The position numbers and the translations under genes were made by a program. The notes beneath the pieces were generated by a model. It did no database searches. It was not told where the DNA came from and was given only the letters and a program-made list of their open reading frames with translations. From IMG/VR virus record IMGVR_UViG_3300043773_001180, positions 1 through 53,067 of that record: DNA of 53,067 bases. One strand, 5' to 3'. This DNA is from a virus. Taxonomy: Duplodnaviria > Caudoviricetes. This document shows, piece after piece, positions 4,051-52,517 of the stretch (positions within the stretch are counted from its first letter, which is position 1; every line of letters starts with the position of its first letter).

Positions 4051-7000
4051 TTAAAATCTAACCACCGAGAATCCATTTTCTTTATGAATATCTATAACAC
4101 TATCAACAATATCTCGTAAAGCATCAATATGTGATATTGTAAGAAGAAAATCAAATTGTGTCTTCATATACTCGAAGAACATACTAATAGAATTTAAATT
4201 ATCCGAATCCAATGTACCCCACCCTTCATCTATACCTATGAAATTTGGTCTTGGTAAGGAAGATATATTGATAAGGGCGGTACGAATTGCAAGTGAAGAA
4301 ATAAACTTCTCCATACCGGATGTCATTTCTAAAGGCCAATAATTTTCTGAATCATAGAGAATAAAGGTGTTTATAGATTTACCATCTGTATCGAATAAAA
4401 TTTCAAAGTCAACTATTTGAGATAAAATAGAATTTACTTCAGATTGTATTTTTGGTATTGCATCGGAAATAAGTTGATATGGAACTCCATTTCTATTTAC
4501 CGATTTTAAATAGTAATCGTAAGCAACATACTTCGATTCTAACTCCTGTAATTTCTTTATAGAATCTGTGGAGTCTTTTATAATCCTCTCCTGAATTTTT
4601 AGCTCACCATTAACATAGATAATTTCAGAATCTATTTTGTTAAATTCTTTGTTGTAATTATCTCGATTGTGTTCAAGAGTTTCAATTTTTACTTGTATTT
4701 TTTCATTATATCGTATATCGCTTTTATTTATAATAAATTTATGTATAAGTTCCTCTGTCTCGGACATCTTATTTAAAAATTTATCACAATTAGATTTATA
4801 CTTTGTAATAGAATTTTCTATTTCAGATACTTTTCGTTGGTCTGTTAAAATTTTCTTTTCTAATTCATTGAATGACTTTATAGATTCCGACGGATTTTGA
4901 ATAGAACCTATTTCAATTTCCACGTTATTGATTTCTGATCTGACTTCAAATAATTGTTTCTTCAAATCTAAAAGTATTTTTTCCGCGTTCTTTGCATCTT
5001 GAACAAACACATTATTAACACAATACTGACAATCTGGATCGTATTCATGTGTTGATAGATTATCCAATTTAGATTGATTGTGTGATATGTTTAATATTAT
5101 GTTTTCGGATGTATTTCGTAGATTGGTAAGTTTATTCTGTAATCCATCTAATTTTTTCTTATCTTCCAAAAGAATCGAATAATCTATGCCTTGTAATTTC
5201 TCCTGTTCCTTACTTAAATTATCGACTAATATATTGAGTTCGTCTTGTAATTTATTTACATTCTGTTCACACAATATATTTTGTTCGCCCAATTCTTTTT
5301 TAAGTTCAATTAAATCTTCAAGAGTTTGGCCAAGCAAACTTGTGTCTATTGGCTTTAAAGATTTTGTTAAAGATATTATCTTCTTATTGGTTGATTCAAT
5401 ACTCTTTTTAAGTTTATTTTTTTCAACACTTAAATTTGAAAGTTGTTCGGAAAATTCATTGTATTTTGTGTTTGCATCTGTTATCTTTGTGGAATAATCT
5501 TGGCGAGAATACTCTTTAATTAGAGTTTGTACCGATTTTATTTCATCAATCGCTATTGCATTTAATTCTTCAAACAAATTCAAATCAAGAAATTGTGCCA
5601 AAAGGTCTTTACGTTCACTTTGTGTCTTATCTATAAAGTTGGTATTGTTTCCTTGTAGAGAAAGTGCAGTTATAATAAAATCATCATACGTTCCAAGATA
5701 ATTTCGTATTGAAGAATTTGTACCATCTCTATCATCCCCATTCAGAGACTTTATTTCACCATTTTCTTCACACCAAAAATTAAGAGTTACTTTAACATTA
5801 CCTTGTTTATTCTTTTTACCAAAACGTTCTATGAAATAATCAACTCCGTTTATTTGAAATTGAAATTTACATCTAAAGTCATCTTTCTTATTATTTATAA
5901 TTTGTGATGCCTTATATGTTCTTGAACATTTATCAAATATACAAAACATAAGGGCATCCAATATAGAAGATTTACCACTTGCGTTGGATGCAAATATACC
6001 ATACGTTCCATTCATTTGGGAAAAATCAATCCAATTATTCGCCCCGTAGGAAAACATATTATCAAATTCAAATCTAATCGGAGTCCAAATAACATTTCTC
6101 AAAACAACATTTTGGTCTATCTGACGATTTATTTCTCTATTTATTTTACGAACCTCATCTACAACATCATCTTGAACAGAAAAATTCTTTTCCAAATATT
6201 CCGTTATTAATTTATTCTGATATTCAACATCACGAACATCACCGATTGAAATTTTTGTATTTGAATTTTCATCGGTTAAATTAGATGTCATTTTTTGAAT
6301 ACGAATATCATCTATTTTAATTAAGGATTTTAGTTTAGTTATCTGTTTAAATAATTGTGAATTTGATGTGTTGAAGGAACGAACTCGTATTCTATTATTT
6401 ATAGAAAAAGTAGTTGGTAAGTTTACAAATTTACCACCATCAACATCTATGGTATAGTATGCCCAATCGTTATTTATACGAACAAACTTAGAAGTACCAT
6501 CTAATAGATTCCAATTAATTATACCATGTTCCGTACCTTCCCCGAAGTTTTGTTGAATCAATGAACCTGCATACGCAAACTTAGAATTTGTATCTAAATA
6601 CTGGAATGAATGGATGTCACCGAACATACCATAATCAAATCCATCAAAACATTGTATATTTAATCTACTATTATTTATAGTATTTCCCGAACTAAGGTAT
6701 GCCCTATCCAAGGCACCATGATACAATACAATTTTTATATTATCACTTTTAACGTCATTTGCATAAATAAAATTATCGGGGTTCTCATGCACCGCGTTCA
6801 ATATAAAATCAACGCCACCGAGAGTATAGACCCCTGTATCTTTAAAATAAAAGAAGTCTGGTGTATCTATGGAATCTACGATTGGTGATAAAGCGTCCAA
6901 ACGATTACGGTTATTCAGATTCATATCGTGATTGCCGGCAATAAGAATCACAGGTGCAATATCGGCAAGGTTGACAAGAAAGTTTCTCGTCATTACGATA

Positions 7001-32665: not shown

Positions 32666-33328
32666 TTATCCTCTTTTTGTTTTATTCTTTGGTTGTATTA
32701 TTGTATCTATAACGCCAAGTTGAATGGCATCTTCGGGTGTAATATAGTAATCTTTTACTGTATTATCTACCCAAAACTTTCTATCTTTATTGGAATTTGA
32801 ACTCATTATCCCAACAATTATATCTTCCAATTTTTCCATGTGTTGAACATTTGCCTTCATATCTGATGACTTACCATAGATACCGGAAGACATCTCGTGA
32901 AACATAATTGTACTATTTTTAGATGCCGCTCGTATTCCTGTACCTGAACAAAGTAGTAGTGCCGCGGCAGACATCGCTCTTCCTCTACAAATAGTATTCA
33001 CTTTAACATCAAGACTTTCAATAAAGTCTATAATACCAAGTGCCTCATATACGTCACCACCGTCGGAATTTATTATAAGGTTGATTGGATTTTCTTTTTC
33101 TTCTTCAGGTCGTATGCGAAGTATTGCCTTTATTCTCAACATAACCTCGTAAAGAGTTCCGTCTGTAATATCACCGAACAATAATACACTCGAAGTTTCG
33201 GTGTCAATTCCGTACTCAATTTGAGTCAATGCCTCTTTCCATTTCAATGGAAGTTCTTGATTTGACATATCGGAATTAGTAATATTTTTTAATTGTTCCG
33301 GTTCATCGTCATATAAATTTTTCATCAA
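32666..33328 (-). CDS. clpP: ClpP-family serine protease
   Basis: INSDGG, GRAMSAA (Ser), IMFHE (His), KDYY (Asp), A..LG.ID. Confidence 0.85.
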   Translation of the reverse strand: MMKNLYDDEPEQLKNITNSDMSNQELPLKWKEALTQIEYGIDTETSSVLLFGDITDGTLYEVMLRIKAILRIRPEEEKENPINLIINSDGGDVYEALGIIDFIESLDVKVNTICRGRAMSAAALLLCSGTGIRAASKNSTIMFHEMSSGIYGKSSDMKANVQHMEKLEDIIVGIMSSNSNKDRKFWVDNTVKDYYITPEDAIQLGVIDTIIQPKNKTKRG

Positions 33329-39370: not shown

Positions 39371-39822
39371 TAAAAATTTTCCTTTACAGAGAGATACTTT
39401 AAAACTTCTTTCCAGTTTGGGAATTTCGGACTACCGAAATGTATAAACTCACCACTAAATTCAGTTGAACCGTTTGCCGTTCTATCATCAATAAGATAAT
39501 TCCCCAAATTCAAAGACTTATTGTTTGATAGAATAAGTTTCTTATAAGCAATACTACCAAACTTTTCATCTATCCACAATCTCTTATCTATAAATGAACT
39601 TGGATTTTCCCATTCAGCAGTTGATAAAAAATAAACATTGAATTTTGTATTCAAGAAATTTACCGCATCATAGGCATCTGGAATCAATTCAAGGTCTCGG
39701 TAAAATCCAGGAGGAGTCGGTGGTATATGATACGGGTCTATCTTTCTTCCATACATTCTTTCCCATTTACCTGCAAAATCTGCAACAACCCCATCCATAT
39801 CAACGTAAACTATTTTTTTCAC
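39370..39822 (-). CDS. 5'(3')-deoxyribonucleotidase (HAD/NT5C family)
   Basis: YVDMDGV, LST, K..W, LIDD; likely GTG start at 39822 after GAGG. Confidence 0.85.
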   Translation of the reverse strand: MKKIVYVDMDGVVADFAGKWERMYGRKIDPYHIPPTPPGFYRDLELIPDAYDAVNFLNTKFNVYFLSTAEWENPSSFIDKRLWIDEKFGSIAYKKLILSNNKSLNLGNYLIDDRTANGSTEFSGEFIHFGSPKFPNWKEVLKYLSVKENF

Positions 39823-40402: not shown

Positions 40403-40865
40403 CCTTTTTTAGTTTAATAAGTTGAATACTGGTAACGCCACCATCATCTGTGATTATGACATTATATCTTGATTGTATCAAAACACCATATAACCAACCC
40501 AAAAACGTATTTATCTCTTTTAGATATTGGGCATCATCATTTTTGTTATTGTCTGGAACTTTTTTATTTGAGTTAGGTAATTTACCGTCATCCTCTGAAA
40601 ATAAGTCTTCACCAAATAGGTCAAAATCATCTTGATTAGAATCGAAATCTGTGTTATCTTCGTTATTTTGTTCAGGATTGTTTTTAATATTATCACTTAT
40701 TTTTTTGATAATATCACGAATAATCTCTGAATCATATAGTCTATTAAATCTATCTAAAAAAAGTTTCTTCTGTTCTGCCGTCATCTTCTCACTACGTTTA
40801 CCACCCATATCAATCTCATAGTAATTGAGCATTGACTTAATTTTTTCTTTTTGATTTTTCGTCAT
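40386..40865 (-). CDS. Hypothetical protein with acidic linker
   Basis: AGGA ribosome-binding site; overlapping operon. Confidence 0.65.
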   Translation of the reverse strand: MTKNQKEKIKSMLNYYEIDMGGKRSEKMTAEQKKLFLDRFNRLYDSEIIRDIIKKISDNIKNNPEQNNEDNTDFDSNQDDFDLFGEDLFSEDDGKLPNSNKKVPDNNKNDDAQYLKEINTFLGWLYGVLIQSRYNVIITDDGGVTSIQLIKLKKGGSKK

Positions 40866-41124
40866 ATCCGTTTCCTACATGGGTTAAAGATTTTAAAACA
40901 TCATCGTACTCGTAATGACCATTTTGGATTTTTATCAATGAGTATTCTTTTATCGTTCTTAATAACTTTTCATTGTGATTACCAGATTCAATCAATTTTA
41001 AGAAAGATTCTTTTTGTGGACATATTCTACTACTGATACTGATTTGATTAGACTTAGTTAAAACCATATTTGTTCCAATCATTGAGAGTATAAACAATAT
41101 GGTGTATAATATAAATGTTTCCAT
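40837..41124 (-). CDS. Hypothetical membrane-anchored protein
   Basis: N-terminal hydrophobic helix. Confidence 0.6.
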   Translation of the reverse strand: METFILYTILFILSMIGTNMVLTKSNQISISSRICPQKESFLKLIESGNHNEKLLRTIKEYSLIKIQNGHYEYDDVLKSLTHVGNGYDEKSKRKN

Positions 41125-49155: not shown

Positions 49156-49980
49156 TTAGTTTGTTTTTGTAATCATATCCATATAGTATTTGTAAGTTTG
49201 GTGTTGTTGGAATACTTGTTTAATTTCATTTAACGCTATCTCTGCCTCTCCTTCTGTTTGGAAACAATTACCAAGATTGTATCGGTCACGAAACATAGCA
49301 CAATTTTGAATAGTGGTTGACTGACGGATTCTACCGATTTCGTCGATAAACCAATAAGATTTACCTTCATTTGGTTTCCAACGGGGTGGTACATACGGGG
49401 TAGGAACGTTAATAACAATCGGTCTCCATACGTCTCCGTCTTTAAATGCATCAAACCAATTTATCAGATGAACTTCATTATCTTCTCCAACTACCCATAC
49501 ATCACCATCTTGAAATCGTTGAGAGTTATATCCATCGAATCCACACGGCAGTCTATCGGTTATCCAACCATCGTTATCATCCATAGGGATGAACGGTTTA
49601 ACCGACCCCGACCACGAGTCCTTTCTATTGTCGTTTGTGTTTTTCTGTCCTGTTTCCCGTCTATATGTCACACCATCATCAGATTCCGTAATTGCCCCTG
49701 CCATAAAAAATCCACCACAGATTCTAAGCCACGGTTCATCGTCCTCTACACCTTCTTCAATCCAAAAATGAAATCCACCAGAATGATAACTTCCCTTAAA
49801 TACCGTTTCTTGTAACGCTTCTTCCAACATAACCCTAAACTCGGATTCCGTAACCGAATCACCCGGTGTGTGCCACCATTTCCAACGAACCGCTTTCATT
49901 GCTGTTACACATCGTTCGACTTCAAAGTATTCTTTTATAGACTGGACTTGTTCTCTTAAAACTTCACTTCTACTTAACAT
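49156..49980 (-). CDS. Modular protein: unique N-domain plus WITDRLP and RWKP...GNCF modules
   Basis: GGAGGAG before the ATG at 49980; C-terminal half paralogous to 50170 and 50546 ORFs. Confidence 0.75.
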   Translation of the reverse strand: MLSRSEVLREQVQSIKEYFEVERCVTAMKAVRWKWWHTPGDSVTESEFRVMLEEALQETVFKGSYHSGGFHFWIEEGVEDDEPWLRICGGFFMAGAITESDDGVTYRRETGQKNTNDNRKDSWSGSVKPFIPMDDNDGWITDRLPCGFDGYNSQRFQDGDVWVVGEDNEVHLINWFDAFKDGDVWRPIVINVPTPYVPPRWKPNEGKSYWFIDEIGRIRQSTTIQNCAMFRDRYNLGNCFQTEGEAEIALNEIKQVFQQHQTYKYYMDMITKTN

Positions 49981-49984
49981 AGAT

Positions 49985-50095
49985 TTACTCTCCTCCAAAT
50001 AAATTTATAAATGCAACCAAGAATTTGTACGCAACCCATATTGTTCCTACTAAAACAGACAACATGAGAAGAATTGAAAATAGTAGTGAAATCAT
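49985..50095 (-). CDS. 36-aa hydrophobic peptide (not in ORF track)
   Basis: MISLLFSILLMLSVLVGTIWVAYKFLVAFINLFGGE; AAGGA upstream. Confidence 0.55.
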   Translation of the reverse strand: MISLLFSILLMLSVLVGTIWVAYKFLVAFINLFGGE

Positions 50096-50123
50096 TTTTG
50101 TTTTCCTTTTGTATTACTGATAC

Positions 50124-50177
50124 TTAATAATTAGACTCTTTAGGGTTCGGCAGCCTGTCGGTTATCCACTCACTCAT
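50124..50177 (-). pseudogene. Truncated fourth WITDRLP copy (MSEWITDRLPNPKESNY*)
   Basis: Start region identical to that of 50170..50553; stops after 17 codons. Confidence 0.65.
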
Positions 50178-50553
50178 TGTTCAGCTCCTTATGATAGTTT
50201 AGTAATGTCTCACGCACACGTCGCGCGGCTTCTTGGGCTTGGGCTTGGGTTTTGAAACAGTTGCCGAAGTCGTATCGTCTGAGGAAACGATATTCGTTAT
50301 CCGTAGCAATTAAACGATGCTCAAAGCCGGAGTCGGTTACATAATGGTATAGTTGCTCACTCTCAGGCTTCCACCGCTGCGGCTCTGTCTTGACGTAGGG
50401 TTTTGGCATTGCTATGTGCGTCCAAGGTTGTCCGTGCAAAACTGTACTATAATGTTGGTTTTTAAGTCCATCACATACATAGTAAACCCAAACCGTTTGA
50501 TTTACATCTCCGTCTTCTTTAGTCGGCAGTCTATCAGTTATCCACTCACTCAT
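50170..50553 (-). CDS. WITDRLP / RWKP..GNCF family protein
   Basis: Paralogue; ends LLNYHKELNNE. Confidence 0.8.
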   Translation of the reverse strand: MSEWITDRLPTKEDGDVNQTVWVYYVCDGLKNQHYSTVLHGQPWTHIAMPKPYVKTEPQRWKPESEQLYHYVTDSGFEHRLIATDNEYRFLRRYDFGNCFKTQAQAQEAARRVRETLLNYHKELNNE

Positions 50554-50923
50554 TGTTCAGCTCCTTATGATAGTTAAGTAAAAGTTCACGCACTCGGCTC
50601 GCAGCTTCCTGTGCCTGAGCCTCTGTTTGAAAGCAGTTGCCAATTGCATACCTATCATGATCACCACTAGTGCCTAGCCATGCATTGCTGAACACGCAAT
50701 GCGATACGACTGAGAAGTATATCTCGTTGACATTCGGCTTCCACCGCTGCGGCTCGGGCTTGACGTAGGACGCGGGGATTTTTATTGGCATCCAAGGCAT
50801 ACCAAGTTTAATTTCATTACGTCTTCTTAAATTTGGCAAGCCGACTATTTCCTGATACCACACAAGACCTAGAAACCCATCTTCGTATTTCGGCAGCCTG
50901 TCGGTTATCCATTCTGTATTCAT
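50546..50923 (-). CDS. WITDRLP / RWKP..GNCF family protein
   Basis: Start MNTEW at 50923 after AAGGA; ends LLNYHKELNNE. Confidence 0.8.
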   Translation of the reverse strand: MNTEWITDRLPKYEDGFLGLVWYQEIVGLPNLRRRNEIKLGMPWMPIKIPASYVKPEPQRWKPNVNEIYFSVVSHCVFSNAWLGTSGDHDRYAIGNCFQTEAQAQEAASRVRELLLNYHKELNNE

Positions 50924-50950
50924 GTTGTTAGTCCTTATTCTAAATTTAAC

Positions 50951-51051
50951 GGCACATAACAAGGGTTTTGCGTAATAGCCCTATCAAGTGTCGTGGTTAA
51001 TTTTAAGTTTCTACTAAGGGCTACTACGCAAAGCCCTGATACGTTATAGCC
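50951..51051. mobile_element. attC-like hairpin recombination site
   Basis: ...ATAAC-[19/21-bp stem]-34-nt loop-[stem]-GATAC-GTTATA... Confidence 0.65.
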
Positions 51052-51505
51052 AATAGCTACCATTCACGGTCAACACCGACTTGTATGAAGTTAACACTTT
51101 CCGAATAATAACCACTTGATTCTCCGTACCAACGAATATCTACATAGCCTTTTATCGTTGCTAATTTGTAAAATGTCCAAGTACAAGAACCCCAATCATT
51201 TGCTTCTTTGGTTTTTTTAATGTCTTCTTCGGAAGTAGGTTCGTAGTTTGAAACTTCTTCGGCTGTTAATATTGGTGTTCCGATTAAGTCATTCAAATCT
51301 CCGTTAATATCTTCAATTAAAACACTTTCACAGCAATCTTGTCCGTGATACATTTTATATTGTGTTCCATCGTCAACGATAAAAATTAATTCATCGCCAT
51401 TGTTTTTAATTTCGGTAAGTGTTTTACCCACTAAGTCTTTAAATTCTGCCATTGTATTTGTTTTTAAATTAAGTTTCTACTAATCAATCCGCTACTGGCT
51501 ATAAC
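51043..51505 (-). mobile_element. Integron-like gene cassette bounded by complementary core sites
   Basis: gttatagccaatagc (51043-57) and gctactggctataac (51491-505) are 14/15 inverted complements enclosing one ORF. Confidence 0.6.
51057..51452 (-). CDS. Conserved phage protein (DUF7448-like)
   Basis: [37 protein letters not shown]. Confidence 0.75.
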
Positions 51506-51538
51506 AGCAACCTTTCCATCACGAATTACTTTTTCCAT
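51464..51538 (-). pseudogene. 5' fragment (MEKVIRDGKVAV) of a gene interrupted by the cassette
   Basis: First ORF after the promoter; enters the cassette at GCT/GTT and stops at codon 25. Confidence 0.45.
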
Positions 51539-51568: not shown

Positions 51569-51600
51569 CAAATATAAGTAAAAAAATCCAAACCACCAAA
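51569..51600 (-). promoter_or_regulatory. Bacteroidota-type promoter TTTG-N20-TATATTTG
   Basis: Consensus match. Confidence 0.8.
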
Positions 51601-51802
51601 TTTATTTTTTAAACCCTTACACGGTAAGGAGTTAGATAAAGTTTTCCATAGCAAAAAAATTGACCTCGATAAAAAAACCGGTTTAACGCCCTATTATTAA
51701 CCCCCTCCCCCTAGGGGGTTTACGGGTAATTATACCCCCCGATCTACCCCCCCTAGACCCCCCTATTTTAGGGGTGCGCAGACCATATACCCTAGATCTA
51801 CC

Positions 51803-52324
51803 CTATTTAGACCCCATACCCCCCCTATTAAACCTACCCATTCTTCGGGGAAACATGGTTTCCAGTACCGCATGGGTACATTGTACGTCATATACGGATG
51901 CTATATGATTGGCTTCTACCTCATACGGATTGTTTTTATAGCCCATGCTATTGTTCCAACGGTAATACCAGTTACCTTTACGTGGTTGTAGGTAGTGCGT
52001 GTATTCATGTATGATAGAATTAGCAAGGTTGTATATTGTTTTGTGGCCTTGTATTCTTACCCGGATAATGTTTTCATCTGTTAGGTATTCCGCCCAAACT
52101 CCTTCACTTTGTAGTTCTGTGCAGTTCCAAGTCCATTCTATTTGAGGTAAGTTTCTTCTTGGCTTACCCAACGTTTCCTTACACCATTGTAAGGTTAGGG
52201 ATAAGAAGGTATCTATTTCGGCTTCGGTTAAGTTACCGCCCAAATGATACATAGGTATAGTCTTGCTACGCTTGGGTGTATGAGTTGGTAGTCTTAGTTT
52301 CTTTAGACGTTTGGTTTTAAGCAT
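51803..52324 (-). CDS. Zincin-like metallopeptidase
   Basis: IIHEYTHYLQ...NPYEVEA. Confidence 0.7.
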   Translation of the reverse strand: MLKTKRLKKLRLPTHTPKRSKTIPMYHLGGNLTEAEIDTFLSLTLQWCKETLGKPRRNLPQIEWTWNCTELQSEGVWAEYLTDENIIRVRIQGHKTIYNLANSIIHEYTHYLQPRKGNWYYRWNNSMGYKNNPYEVEANHIASVYDVQCTHAVLETMFPRRMGRFNRGGMGSK

Positions 52325-52517
52325 TACCGGCCCTTTCTTGTCTTATGGGTAATTGTAGTCCACCACCAACAGAGTTCCCCACGGAGTCCAACACGGAGTT
52401 CCACACGGAATACTCCACGGAGATCAACACGGAGTTCCACACGGAGTTCCGCACGGAGTTATACATGGGGATCTCCACAGATTCCAAAATCTTATGTCTA
52501 ACATTCTCTAAGTTCAT
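52317..52517 (-). CDS. Small protein with xSVx tetrapeptide (12-bp) repeats
   Basis: NSVRNSVWNSVLISVEYSVWNSVLDSVGNSVG; acggagttccac-like units at about 52370-52460. Confidence 0.65.
   Translation of the reverse strand: MNLENVRHKILESVEIPMYNSVRNSVWNSVLISVEYSVWNSVLDSVGNSVGGGLQLPIRQERAGNA

Follow-up and report, generated by a model that had tools for sequence, protein, structure and literature searches.

Integrons, phage cassettes and the locus under study

Integrons are regarded as bacterial devices, mostly proteobacterial, that are defined by the integrase IntI, and their attC sites possess an unpaired central spacer with single extrahelical bases. To our knowledge, clusters of attC sites in phages have been reported only as rare finds. 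The locus described here lies in a 53-kb viral fragment (IMG/VR record IMGVR_UViG_3300043773_001180, 53,067 nt, hereafter the window) with a CheckV completeness of 31%, in which an attC-like hairpin follows a small gene with self-complementary flanks, 2 kb from the fragment end. Comparison with related loci suggests that the hairpin is part of an integron-like cassette system found in Bacteroidota and their phages, which probably operates through site-specific recombination of folded DNA by a linked XerA/IntI-like enzyme.

Qi et al. (2023; PMC9892861), in the accessible parts of their report, describe 17 phage clusters of attC sites lacking integron-integrases (CALINs) with at least two sites each, including the virulent Polaribacter phage P12002L with two predicted attC sites; IntI1 recombined one of these two, and one P12002L site was found by HattCI with Infernal. 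When P12002L was scanned for the hairpin family described below, members were found in the 31-41 kb region of the minus strand; some stand on both sides of a DNA methylase gene, and others have stems enclosing small open reading frames (ORFs). The published CALINs resemble the present loci in being attC-like sites in phages without an integrase, P12002L itself carrying family hairpins (matched by phage, not by attC coordinates), and in including DNA methyltransferase cassettes, as in contig G003 here. They differ, to the extent covered by the accessible text, in that the present arrays reach 13 sites and occur on more than 100 contigs, that a cognate non-IntI recombinase is present in hosts and in some phages, and that phage coding polarity is opposite to that of host arrays. 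No description of this Bacteroidota system was found in the open-access literature or on bioRxiv. Phage attC clusters are already in print; the breadth of the system, its cognate recombinase and the opposite coding polarities of phage and host appear to be new.

Several traits are shared with classical integrons. In the bacterial arrays a tyrosine recombinase of the Xer/IntI branch stands beside a conserved site ending GTTA; short ORFs form a one-directional array with imperfect hairpins that have conserved AAC...GTT ends and variable, co-varying stems; the two ends of a cassette pair with each other and one strand is favoured for folding; and the folding strand of bacterial arrays is antisense to the ORFs (15 to 2), as are attC bottom strands. 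Unlike in classical integrons, the recombinase has no IntI-specific insertion and falls below the TIGR02249 cut-off, bacterial arrays lie past the 3' end of the recombinase gene in the same direction, and phage ORFs are on the folding strand with the hairpin preceding its gene. The hairpin is asymmetric, but apparently in another layout than attC, with a 3-4-nt bulge in the 5' arm beside a TAACG/TGTTA helix and with conserved G.T pairs. According to the accessible part of Smyshlyaev et al., conservation of the IntI insertion is incomplete within the subgroup of integron-like recombinases that they define.

Among phages, the promoter-stem-loop (PeSL) cassettes of T4-type genomes (PMC2839356, PMC4122927) are similar in that, by the accessible text of both papers, conserved stem-loop intergenic modules flank small variable ORFs and mark the boundaries of indels and replacements in plastic regions. 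PeSL shuffling is ascribed there to motif homology, whereas here stems differ, unit ends are self-complementary, a dedicated recombinase family is linked and the folding strand in hosts does not follow the coding strand. PeSL elements combine an early promoter with a stem-loop and exchange through near-identical copies, a picture that the sequence differences among stems of one array here do not fit. On that published description, T4 PeSL cassettes are the nearest phage analogue needing no dedicated enzyme. XerC/XerD sites, short and double-stranded, bound dif modules. In Acinetobacter plasmids, Xer-dependent dif modules (PMC7399989) resemble the present units as single-gene modules that are bounded by inverted Xer-type sites and recur in different contexts; in its accessible sections, that account describes no long hairpin, no arrays beside a recombinase gene and no strand-specific wobble.

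Hairpins, arrays and modules

Nearly all genes of the window are on the minus strand, and the following features make up the hairpin and the unit preceding it.

50956..51046, minus strand: attC-like hairpin element, composed of TAACG, a 4-nt bulge, a 21-bp stem (51037-51017 with 50982-50962), a 34-nt loop and TGTTA(T)
50943..50960, minus strand: 18-nt 5' arm plus leader moving with the hairpin; common to L152 and L111, with divergence just before the ORF and contig breaks at 50938-50946
51043..51057, minus strand: 3' arm of the cassette body, ending TAAC; homology among five contexts stops just past it, and contigs break at 51042 and 51047
51057..51452, minus strand: cassette gene of 131 aa, Pfam DUF7448 (PF24240), E 3.2e-31
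51469..51483, minus strand: leader motif of 15 nt, repeated exactly in the hairpin loop
51491..51505, minus strand: 5' arm of the cassette body, starting GTTA; 14/15 complementary to 51043-51057, with the same 5' end in L073, L074 and L076
51503..51538, minus strand: first 12 codons (MEKVIRDGKVAV) of a truncated, conserved phage gene of ~103 aa; the frame stays open into the cassette and gives 24 aa before its stop codon

Along the minus strand a promoter-like stretch is followed by the ATG at 51538 with MEKVIRDGKVAV, then by GTTATAGCCAGTAGC (51505-51491), a leader, the 131-aa ORF, GCTATTGGCTATAAC (51057-51043), the 21-bp stem (19/21) closing the 34-nt loop, and T-GTTATGTGCC. An initial annotation, made from the letters of the sequence, had proposed this geometry of hairpin and cassette ends, and both pairings were recovered by a repeat finder: the hairpin arms (51037-51017 and 50982-50962) are 21 nt each, 90% complementary and 34 nt apart, and the cassette ends (51505-51491 and 51057-51043) are 15 nt each, 93% complementary and 433 nt apart. 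Folding against shuffled sequence agreed. As DNA, the hairpin yielded -21.07 kcal/mol compared with -11.65 ± 2.72 in 200 shuffles (z -3.46, 0/200 as good), and as RNA -45.3 kcal/mol (z -4.32, 0/200 as good). No T-run follows it. At 91 nt the element falls within the size of attC-type imperfect hairpins (~57-141 nt), which are conserved in structure rather than in sequence; the core 7-mers RYYYAAC...GTTRRRY are not present at its ends, which read CTATAAC...GTTATGT. An exact 15-nt direct repeat connects the leader (51483-51469) with the loop (51017-51003), which is weak evidence alone, as at up to two mismatches 7 of 100 shuffles also gave at least two matches.

The whole window had no Rfam match at gathering thresholds. 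A strict architecture scan (TAAC, 3-7 nt, 18-nt arm pairing, 0-3 nt, GTTA) returned this hairpin at 17/18 and a single other, weak one at 15/18 inside coding sequence (6091-6205). Under looser conditions (AAC/GTT, at least 15/18), 19 hits were obtained compared with 4-8 in mononucleotide shuffles, and all except the attC-like hairpin lie in coding or repeat sequence. An array or a recombinase beside the hairpin was not found in this fragment, 31% complete, which holds one hairpin in 53 kb; a search of the whole window for tyrosine recombinases (PF00589) was empty, as the initial annotation had stated for an integrase.

Related hairpins are numerous. The narrow pattern TAACGTTTTGC..GCTGTTA, taken from these hairpins, matched at least 120 viral stretches in IMG/VR; 100 of 127 matches, in 97 of the 120 loci listed, pair at 14/18 or better under a strict ungapped test, and most of the matches listed fold as long hairpins. 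Many phage contigs carry arrays in which hairpins separate short, extremely diverse ORFs, with up to 13 hairpins per locus in ~5 kb, a median of ~370 nt between them and nearly all on one strand, a few loci having one or two on the other. One such contig, G003, is clearly a phage (terminase, primase/helicase-like genes, methyltransferases) and contains four successive units; the stems within this one array differ in sequence. Hairpins fall into size classes of ~66-75, 85-90 and 122-125 nt, with stems of 14-25 bp that are kept by compensatory changes. Alignment of 23 dissimilar hairpins, that of the window included, yielded 19 pairs comprising an invariant TAACG/TGTTA helix with a G.T pair and, after a 3-4-nt bulge in the 5' arm, a 14-pair stem; the window hairpin fits all 19 columns. 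At 12 of the 19 pairs both sides have changed, and 96.8% of alignment cells are paired, compared with 73.9% in shuffles (0/500) and 36-50% when partners were slid. Loops carry an AT-rich leader-like motif that is also present before ORFs.

When the 13-hairpin array was compared with cultured phages by blastn, mainly cassette genes such as YopX were matched, not hairpins, and no empty-site allele was recovered. In bacterial assemblies 61 of 122 matches to the narrow pattern pair, nearly all of them in Bacteroidota by record title; the other 61 are unpaired, include a 74-nt class in archaea and other phyla, and were treated as chance or unrelated. In some members of the family an entire small ORF is contained in the 'loop'; its start follows the leader-like motif and its frame extends across the 3' arm, such that the stem encloses a gene. 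Examples are G001 1939-1817, hairpin 2 of G003 (~2479-2600), G005 12889-12700 and, in P12002L (L361), 40762-40948, 39519-39709 and 32801-32924.

The sequence between consecutive hairpins behaves as a unit. Across 183 non-identical units, the unit's own ends form 7.5 Watson-Crick and 1.3 G.T pairs in the 12 positions beyond GTTA/TAAC, against 4.2 + 2.0 for neighbouring ends across the same hairpin (n=99) and 3.8 + 2.0 for random pairs (Mann-Whitney p = 2e-17), so that the self-complementary ends first remarked on in a single cassette are a general property. Units are extremely diverse, only six similar pairs being found across loci, five of those from identical contigs. Among hairpins, 341 pairs at least 85% identical were found in different loci, of which 15 share the downstream flank alone, none the upstream flank alone, seven both and 319 neither. 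In the pairs L131/L209, L139/L224 and L152/L219 sharing begins right past the upstream TAAC, runs through hairpin and body, and ends exactly at the next TAAC. In L157/L212 similarity weakens after ~90 nt, resumes and stops at the next TAAC. One of these four breakpoint pairs reads TAA|C vs TAA|A.

The hairpin of the window, together with the next 18 nt, is 96% identical over 104 nt to L152:863-967, where the copy sits in an array and a different gene follows; in lake-metagenome contigs the hairpin alone occurs in other flanks. The question raised at annotation, whether the hairpin flanks unrelated ORFs elsewhere, is thereby answered in the affirmative.

Relatives of the DUF7448 ORF were present in 21 IMG/VR loci, five of them at 83-97% identity. 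Loci L073-L076 (89-97% amino acid identity) keep the 3' end ...GCTATTGGCTATAAC, and L073, L074 and L076 keep the 5' end GTTATAGCC.... Past TATAAC, a different hairpin of the same build is found in each of five DUF7448 contexts, the window included. Since the hairpins after the same body differ, and upstream contexts differ too, the hairpin constitutes a module separate from the gene body, which forms a module of its own together with its self-complementary ends. The complete cassette of the initial annotation, an ORF plus the hairpin after it, accordingly does not stand: five different hairpins follow the DUF7448 body, and phage modules consist of a hairpin and its downstream sequence (15 pairs vs 0). 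On one metagenome contig the hairpin known from L073/L074 stands ahead of the DUF7448 body. Comparison of the window region with cultured phages by blastn gave matches to the DUF7448 gene alone, all in hypothetical genes of Bacillus phages (68-78% over 93-255 nt), and no empty-site allele. This alignment of a small gene with Bacillus phages at the DNA level indicates a very wide phage distribution for DUF7448.

In order to compare the two strands, hairpins were re-detected with a scan symmetric for strand and wobble, polarity being set only by the side with the longer spacer (the bulge). For 273 hairpins in phage loci, G.T and A.C pairs on the bulge-5' strand number 505:119, with G.T exceeding A.C in 232 hairpins vs 11, and ORFs are on that strand in 136 cases vs 12 opposite. 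For 32 hairpins in recombinase-adjacent bacterial arrays the ratio is 60:5 (29 hairpins vs 0), and ORFs are on that strand in two cases vs 15 opposite. As G.T wobbles mark one folding strand whichever strand codes, the best-folding strand is a property of the hairpin and not of the transcript. This comparative evidence speaks for selection acting on single-stranded DNA in its folded form, and against a role as RNA alone.

The linked recombinase and the proposed mechanism

Five hairpin-bearing bacterial genomes were searched with the integron-integrase model TIGR02249, and none had a protein above its cut-off. The best hit in each matches positions ~2-179 and 237-315 of the hidden Markov model (HMM), leaving the IntI-specific stretch, 180-236, unmatched. 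Against NCBIfam the recombinase scores 215-226 bits with the XerA/'integron integrase' model NF040815 (cut-off 220) and ~200 bits with TIGR02249 (cut-off 265); its best solved relatives in the Protein Data Bank are of XerA type, and IntI4 matches in two stretches. In three of the five genomes family hairpins lie 0.6-2.1 kb past the 3' end of the recombinase gene, on the other strand. The gene was present in 112 of 151 sampled genomes of the order of G009 (E <= 1e-40). In 30 unselected recombinase loci a hairpin (at least 16/18) occurred within 1.5 kb in eight, vs 0-1 of 30 in shuffles and none in a 51-kb upstream control flank. With more flank, 10 of 12 loci possessed 2-8 downstream hairpins, all on the opposite strand, and the other two reach the contig end within ~2 kb. 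Array ORFs run in the direction of the recombinase gene, past its 3' end. In 12 of 14 loci a conserved attI-like site, ...YTATAAGGNA|GTTA, lies ~100-130 nt past the stop codon, and the first unit starts there. Judged by its layout, the bacterial locus is a complete integron-like platform.

Some further features of these loci were recorded. In the two remaining bacterial loci of the 14 (L399, L400) a gene for a protein with ...KIYFIRKEKVMLDKDLA... either takes the place of the attI-like site or separates it, which may represent insertion at the platform. Just after the hairpin nearest the recombinase, L356 and L357 (genomes G009 and G010) share a conserved stretch, GTTAGTGG..GTAGCCGCCAC..ATACGTCACG; a search of the other 29 recombinase loci did not find it again. 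Contig ends lie within 100-500 nt of the recombinase gene at 14 or more of the 30 best places, which would be expected if short-read assemblies break at repeated hairpin arrays.

Of 47 phage records whose loci contain at least three hairpins, eight have PFAM tyrosine recombinases, nine genes in total. All nine are homologous to the bacterial recombinase (34-44% identity over ~260-280 residues), without its N-terminal extension of ~110 residues, and all have hairpins ~150-900 nt upstream on the same strand. In at least five of the nine, the TAAC of the last unit is followed by TATNATATAT ~45 nt before the start codon. The candidate array-end motif TAAC TAYNGTATA is similar both to the site ahead of the phage recombinases and to the bacterial attI-like motif read as its reverse complement. 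The initial annotation had advised looking for a tyrosine recombinase in phage or host, and such a gene is found in both: XerA/IntI-like homologues adjoin arrays in Flavobacteriales and in those eight phage records. Since the recombinase stands beside the array in some phages, some carry the whole device and most would depend on that of the host.

The mechanism favoured here would proceed as follows. The wobble-bearing strand would fold as single-stranded DNA and, in the manner of IntI on attC bottom strands, the recombinase would cut TAA|C where the fold has its 5' base. Units consisting of a hairpin and the following sequence up to the next TAA would then excise and insert. In phages the genes lie on the folding strand, each hairpin before its gene, and in bacterial arrays on the other strand, in the classical geometry. 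The recombinase acting on the hairpin of the window would come either from the host or from the 69% of the phage genome that the fragment does not cover.

Were this mechanism correct, a hairpin-cassette system with a simpler, Xer-like enzyme would be common in a major aquatic phylum and its phages, and the gain and loss of small early genes at exact boundaries in these phages would be explained. The system would also offer a natural test case for the evolution of single-strand hairpin recombination from Xer recombination. The sequence rules (TAACG ... TGTTA, bulge, self-pairing ends) can be used to locate cassette boundaries in viral metagenomes. A wider proposal, to which we assign an even chance, is that a single integron-like system, so far unrecognised, is common property of Flavobacteriales and their phages, in which an Xer-type recombinase that never gained the IntI insertion, present in about three quarters of sampled host genomes, reads hairpins as single-stranded DNA by means of the bulge and the G.T pairs and drives the turnover of phage early genes. 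As phage cassettes code on the folding strand and host cassettes on the other, the same enzyme could move cassettes between phage and host, with expression gated by strand. The transition from Xer to IntI would then have a living relative in this system, and genes of aquatic phages a major route of exchange.

Several points weigh against the reading as folded-DNA recombination. No recombination was observed, and the mechanism would follow from comparative anatomy. The invariance of TAAC/GTTA and much of the pairing were partly built in by the scans and the narrow pattern; the compensatory changes were not. The 7-mer GTTRRRY occurs in 18 of 183 units and RYYYAAC in 20 of 183, TAAC/GTTA alone being constant and required by the scan. 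Similar hairpins have neither flank in common in 319 of 341 pairs. Loci L143 and L187 have a common body and neither hairpin in common, and for the DUF7448 body three or more different contexts were found upstream, besides its five downstream ones; as both bodies changed upstream hairpins, GTTA is a place of junctions in addition to TAAC, contrary to what one crossover point would predict. Junctions of a third class stand immediately ahead of the start codon and follow a common hairpin and leader (window/L152/L111; L159/L205; L163/L184); they look like ordinary homologous exchange. Nine of ten array-bearing phage records at least 90% complete have no tyrosine recombinase; none was found in G001 (100% complete) or G002 (94%). 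The numbers behind the association with the recombinase are small, and assignments as viral or as metagenome-assembled genomes were taken from the source collections.

One alternative holds that the hairpins are RNA elements between cistrons, acting in processing, stability or termination like the RNase III sites of T7 early mRNA, and that shuffling takes place through short homologies in hairpin bases and leaders, as proposed for PeSL elements in the accessible text of PMC2839356 and PMC4122927. The folding strand of phage hairpins is mostly the mRNA strand (136 to 12), the RNA fold is strong (z -4.32), the AT-rich motif of the loops recurs before ORFs, some junctions lie at leaders just before the ATG, and the shortage of recombinases in near-complete array phages (nine of ten) would be accounted for. 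The wobble strand of bacterial arrays is nevertheless antisense to the ORFs (60:5; 15 to 2), so that folding strand and transcript are uncoupled; the hairpins go together with a single recombinase family and with an attI-like site; a processing site needs neither own-end complementarity nor exact breaks at TAAC; and no T-run follows the hairpin. This explanation is considered unlikely.

A doubtful alternative, which we regard as quite improbable, is an ordinary integron cassette and attC site moved by a canonical host IntI and inserted at a secondary G/TT site, comparable to the off-site insertion described for IntI1. It is favoured by the AAC/GTT cores, by an imperfect hairpin of attC-like length with own-end complementarity, by the junction on the GT of the truncated gene, by the recombination of a predicted attC site of P12002L by IntI1 (PMC9892861, accessible part) and by a preprint, likewise accessible in part, on cassette insertion outside att sites (10.1101/2022.09.11.507474). 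It is opposed by the enzyme, which in none of the five hairpin-bearing genomes reached the integron-integrase cut-off or matched HMM positions 180-236, by the scarcity of the 7-mers, by the association of phage hairpins with the downstream ORF on the coding strand, and by the missing remainder of the target gene. In addition, Salinibacter ruber is the only complete integron named within Bacteroidetes proper in the accessible text of the IntegronFinder 2.0 paper (PMC9024848).

A chance palindrome or plain terminator, which the single copy in the window and the absence of an Rfam family might suggest, is refuted by the 96%-identical copy in the array of another phage and by hundreds of relatives with covariation, and lacks the T-run, and can be dismissed.

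Recombination of folded DNA by the linked recombinase is retained as the probable mechanism, and the initial reading is upheld in part. Its 'integron-type' hairpin is attC-like and belongs to a cassette system; the strict integron label fails on the missing IntI insertion and the rare 7-mers, and the labels of complete cassette and simple insertion fail on the tests described for each.

The truncated gene and neighbouring features of the window

The ORF upstream of the cassette starts with the ATG at 51538, and its first 12 codons, MEKVIRDGKVAV, run into the GTT at 51505-51503. The exact peptide was found in 22 IMG/VR stretches, in 21 of which it heads proteins of 100-105 aa, the remaining one being cut by the end of the locus. 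The annotator's statement that the peptide resembles the N-terminus of a longer phage protein was thus correct, as was the remark that the ORF breaks at that point, the gene being cut at GT(T). When the full protein (MEKV) was compared with the window by tblastn, matches were restricted to residues 1-15 to 1-18, and the remaining ~90 codons of this early gene were found nowhere in the window. As the rest of the gene is absent, the joint is a replacement or deletion junction, and the simple insertion inside an early gene that had been proposed does not hold. The MEKV gene is itself a unit of a hairpin array in L416, L423 and L405.

An intact allele had also been sought, and one lake-metagenome contig carries the upstream sequence of the window continuing after 51507 with the codons AVLVSGGYGAG, that is, into the intact MEKV gene; this allele rests on the loose end of a single contig, 169 nt in length, of which 30 letters were read. 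In four lake metagenomes, contig breaks fall at 51042/51047 (TAAC|G), at 50938-50946 (the leader end) and at 51507/51509.

The window looks like a recombinant remnant, in which the early gene was cut within GCTGT at codon 11-12 and joined to a DUF7448 body without its own upstream hairpin, followed by the hairpin and leader of the next unit. At the joint, AAGGT(T)GC(T/C)GT is present in both parental forms. Action of the recombinase at a look-alike secondary GT site and deletion across the microhomology AAGGT(T)GCTGT both fit, with little to choose between them. The bases AAGGTTGCT before the cassette were considered as a relic of a hairpin 3' arm; this was rejected, since they encode residues 9-11 of the conserved MEKV protein. 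They still resemble the end of the L073 hairpin, a likeness attributable to microhomology or to a secondary site.

Two further features adjoin the unit.

51569..51600, minus strand: putative promoter of Bacteroidota type, with TTTG at 51600-51597, 20 nt and TATATTTG at 51576-51569, read by eye
50546..50923, minus strand: downstream gene, the first of three tandem WITDRLP paralogues, without a Pfam family

The Bacteroidota promoter consensus is TTTG / TAnnTTTG. Downstream, no matching cassette end was found after the gene at 50546..50923, the best candidate pairing at 9/12 inside coding sequence. The three tandem paralogous genes occupy 49156-50962 (minus strand), encode 280, 127 and 125-138 aa and share the motifs WITDRLP...RWKP...GNCF(Q/K)T...A(Q/E)A; no Pfam family was assigned to them.

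Upstream, a protein of 173 aa is encoded at 51803-52324 (minus strand); it has an HEYTH motif (HExxH-like) and no Pfam match, and relatives at 26-46% identity were present in 70 IMG/VR loci. The best of these reaches 46% over a 37-residue segment and the others at most 39%, and no close phage relative was found in IMG/VR for a comparison of synteny. Upstream of the promoter, 51700-51830 is a G-rich intergenic stretch on the minus strand that contains a family of 26-nt direct repeats, with three overlapping copies at 65-100% identity. The ORF at 52317-52517 (minus strand) is built of NSV(W/G/L)NSV-type repeats, and lake-metagenome contigs there show joints that go back 97-102 together with alternative letters, which suggests variation in the copy number of the tandem repeats.

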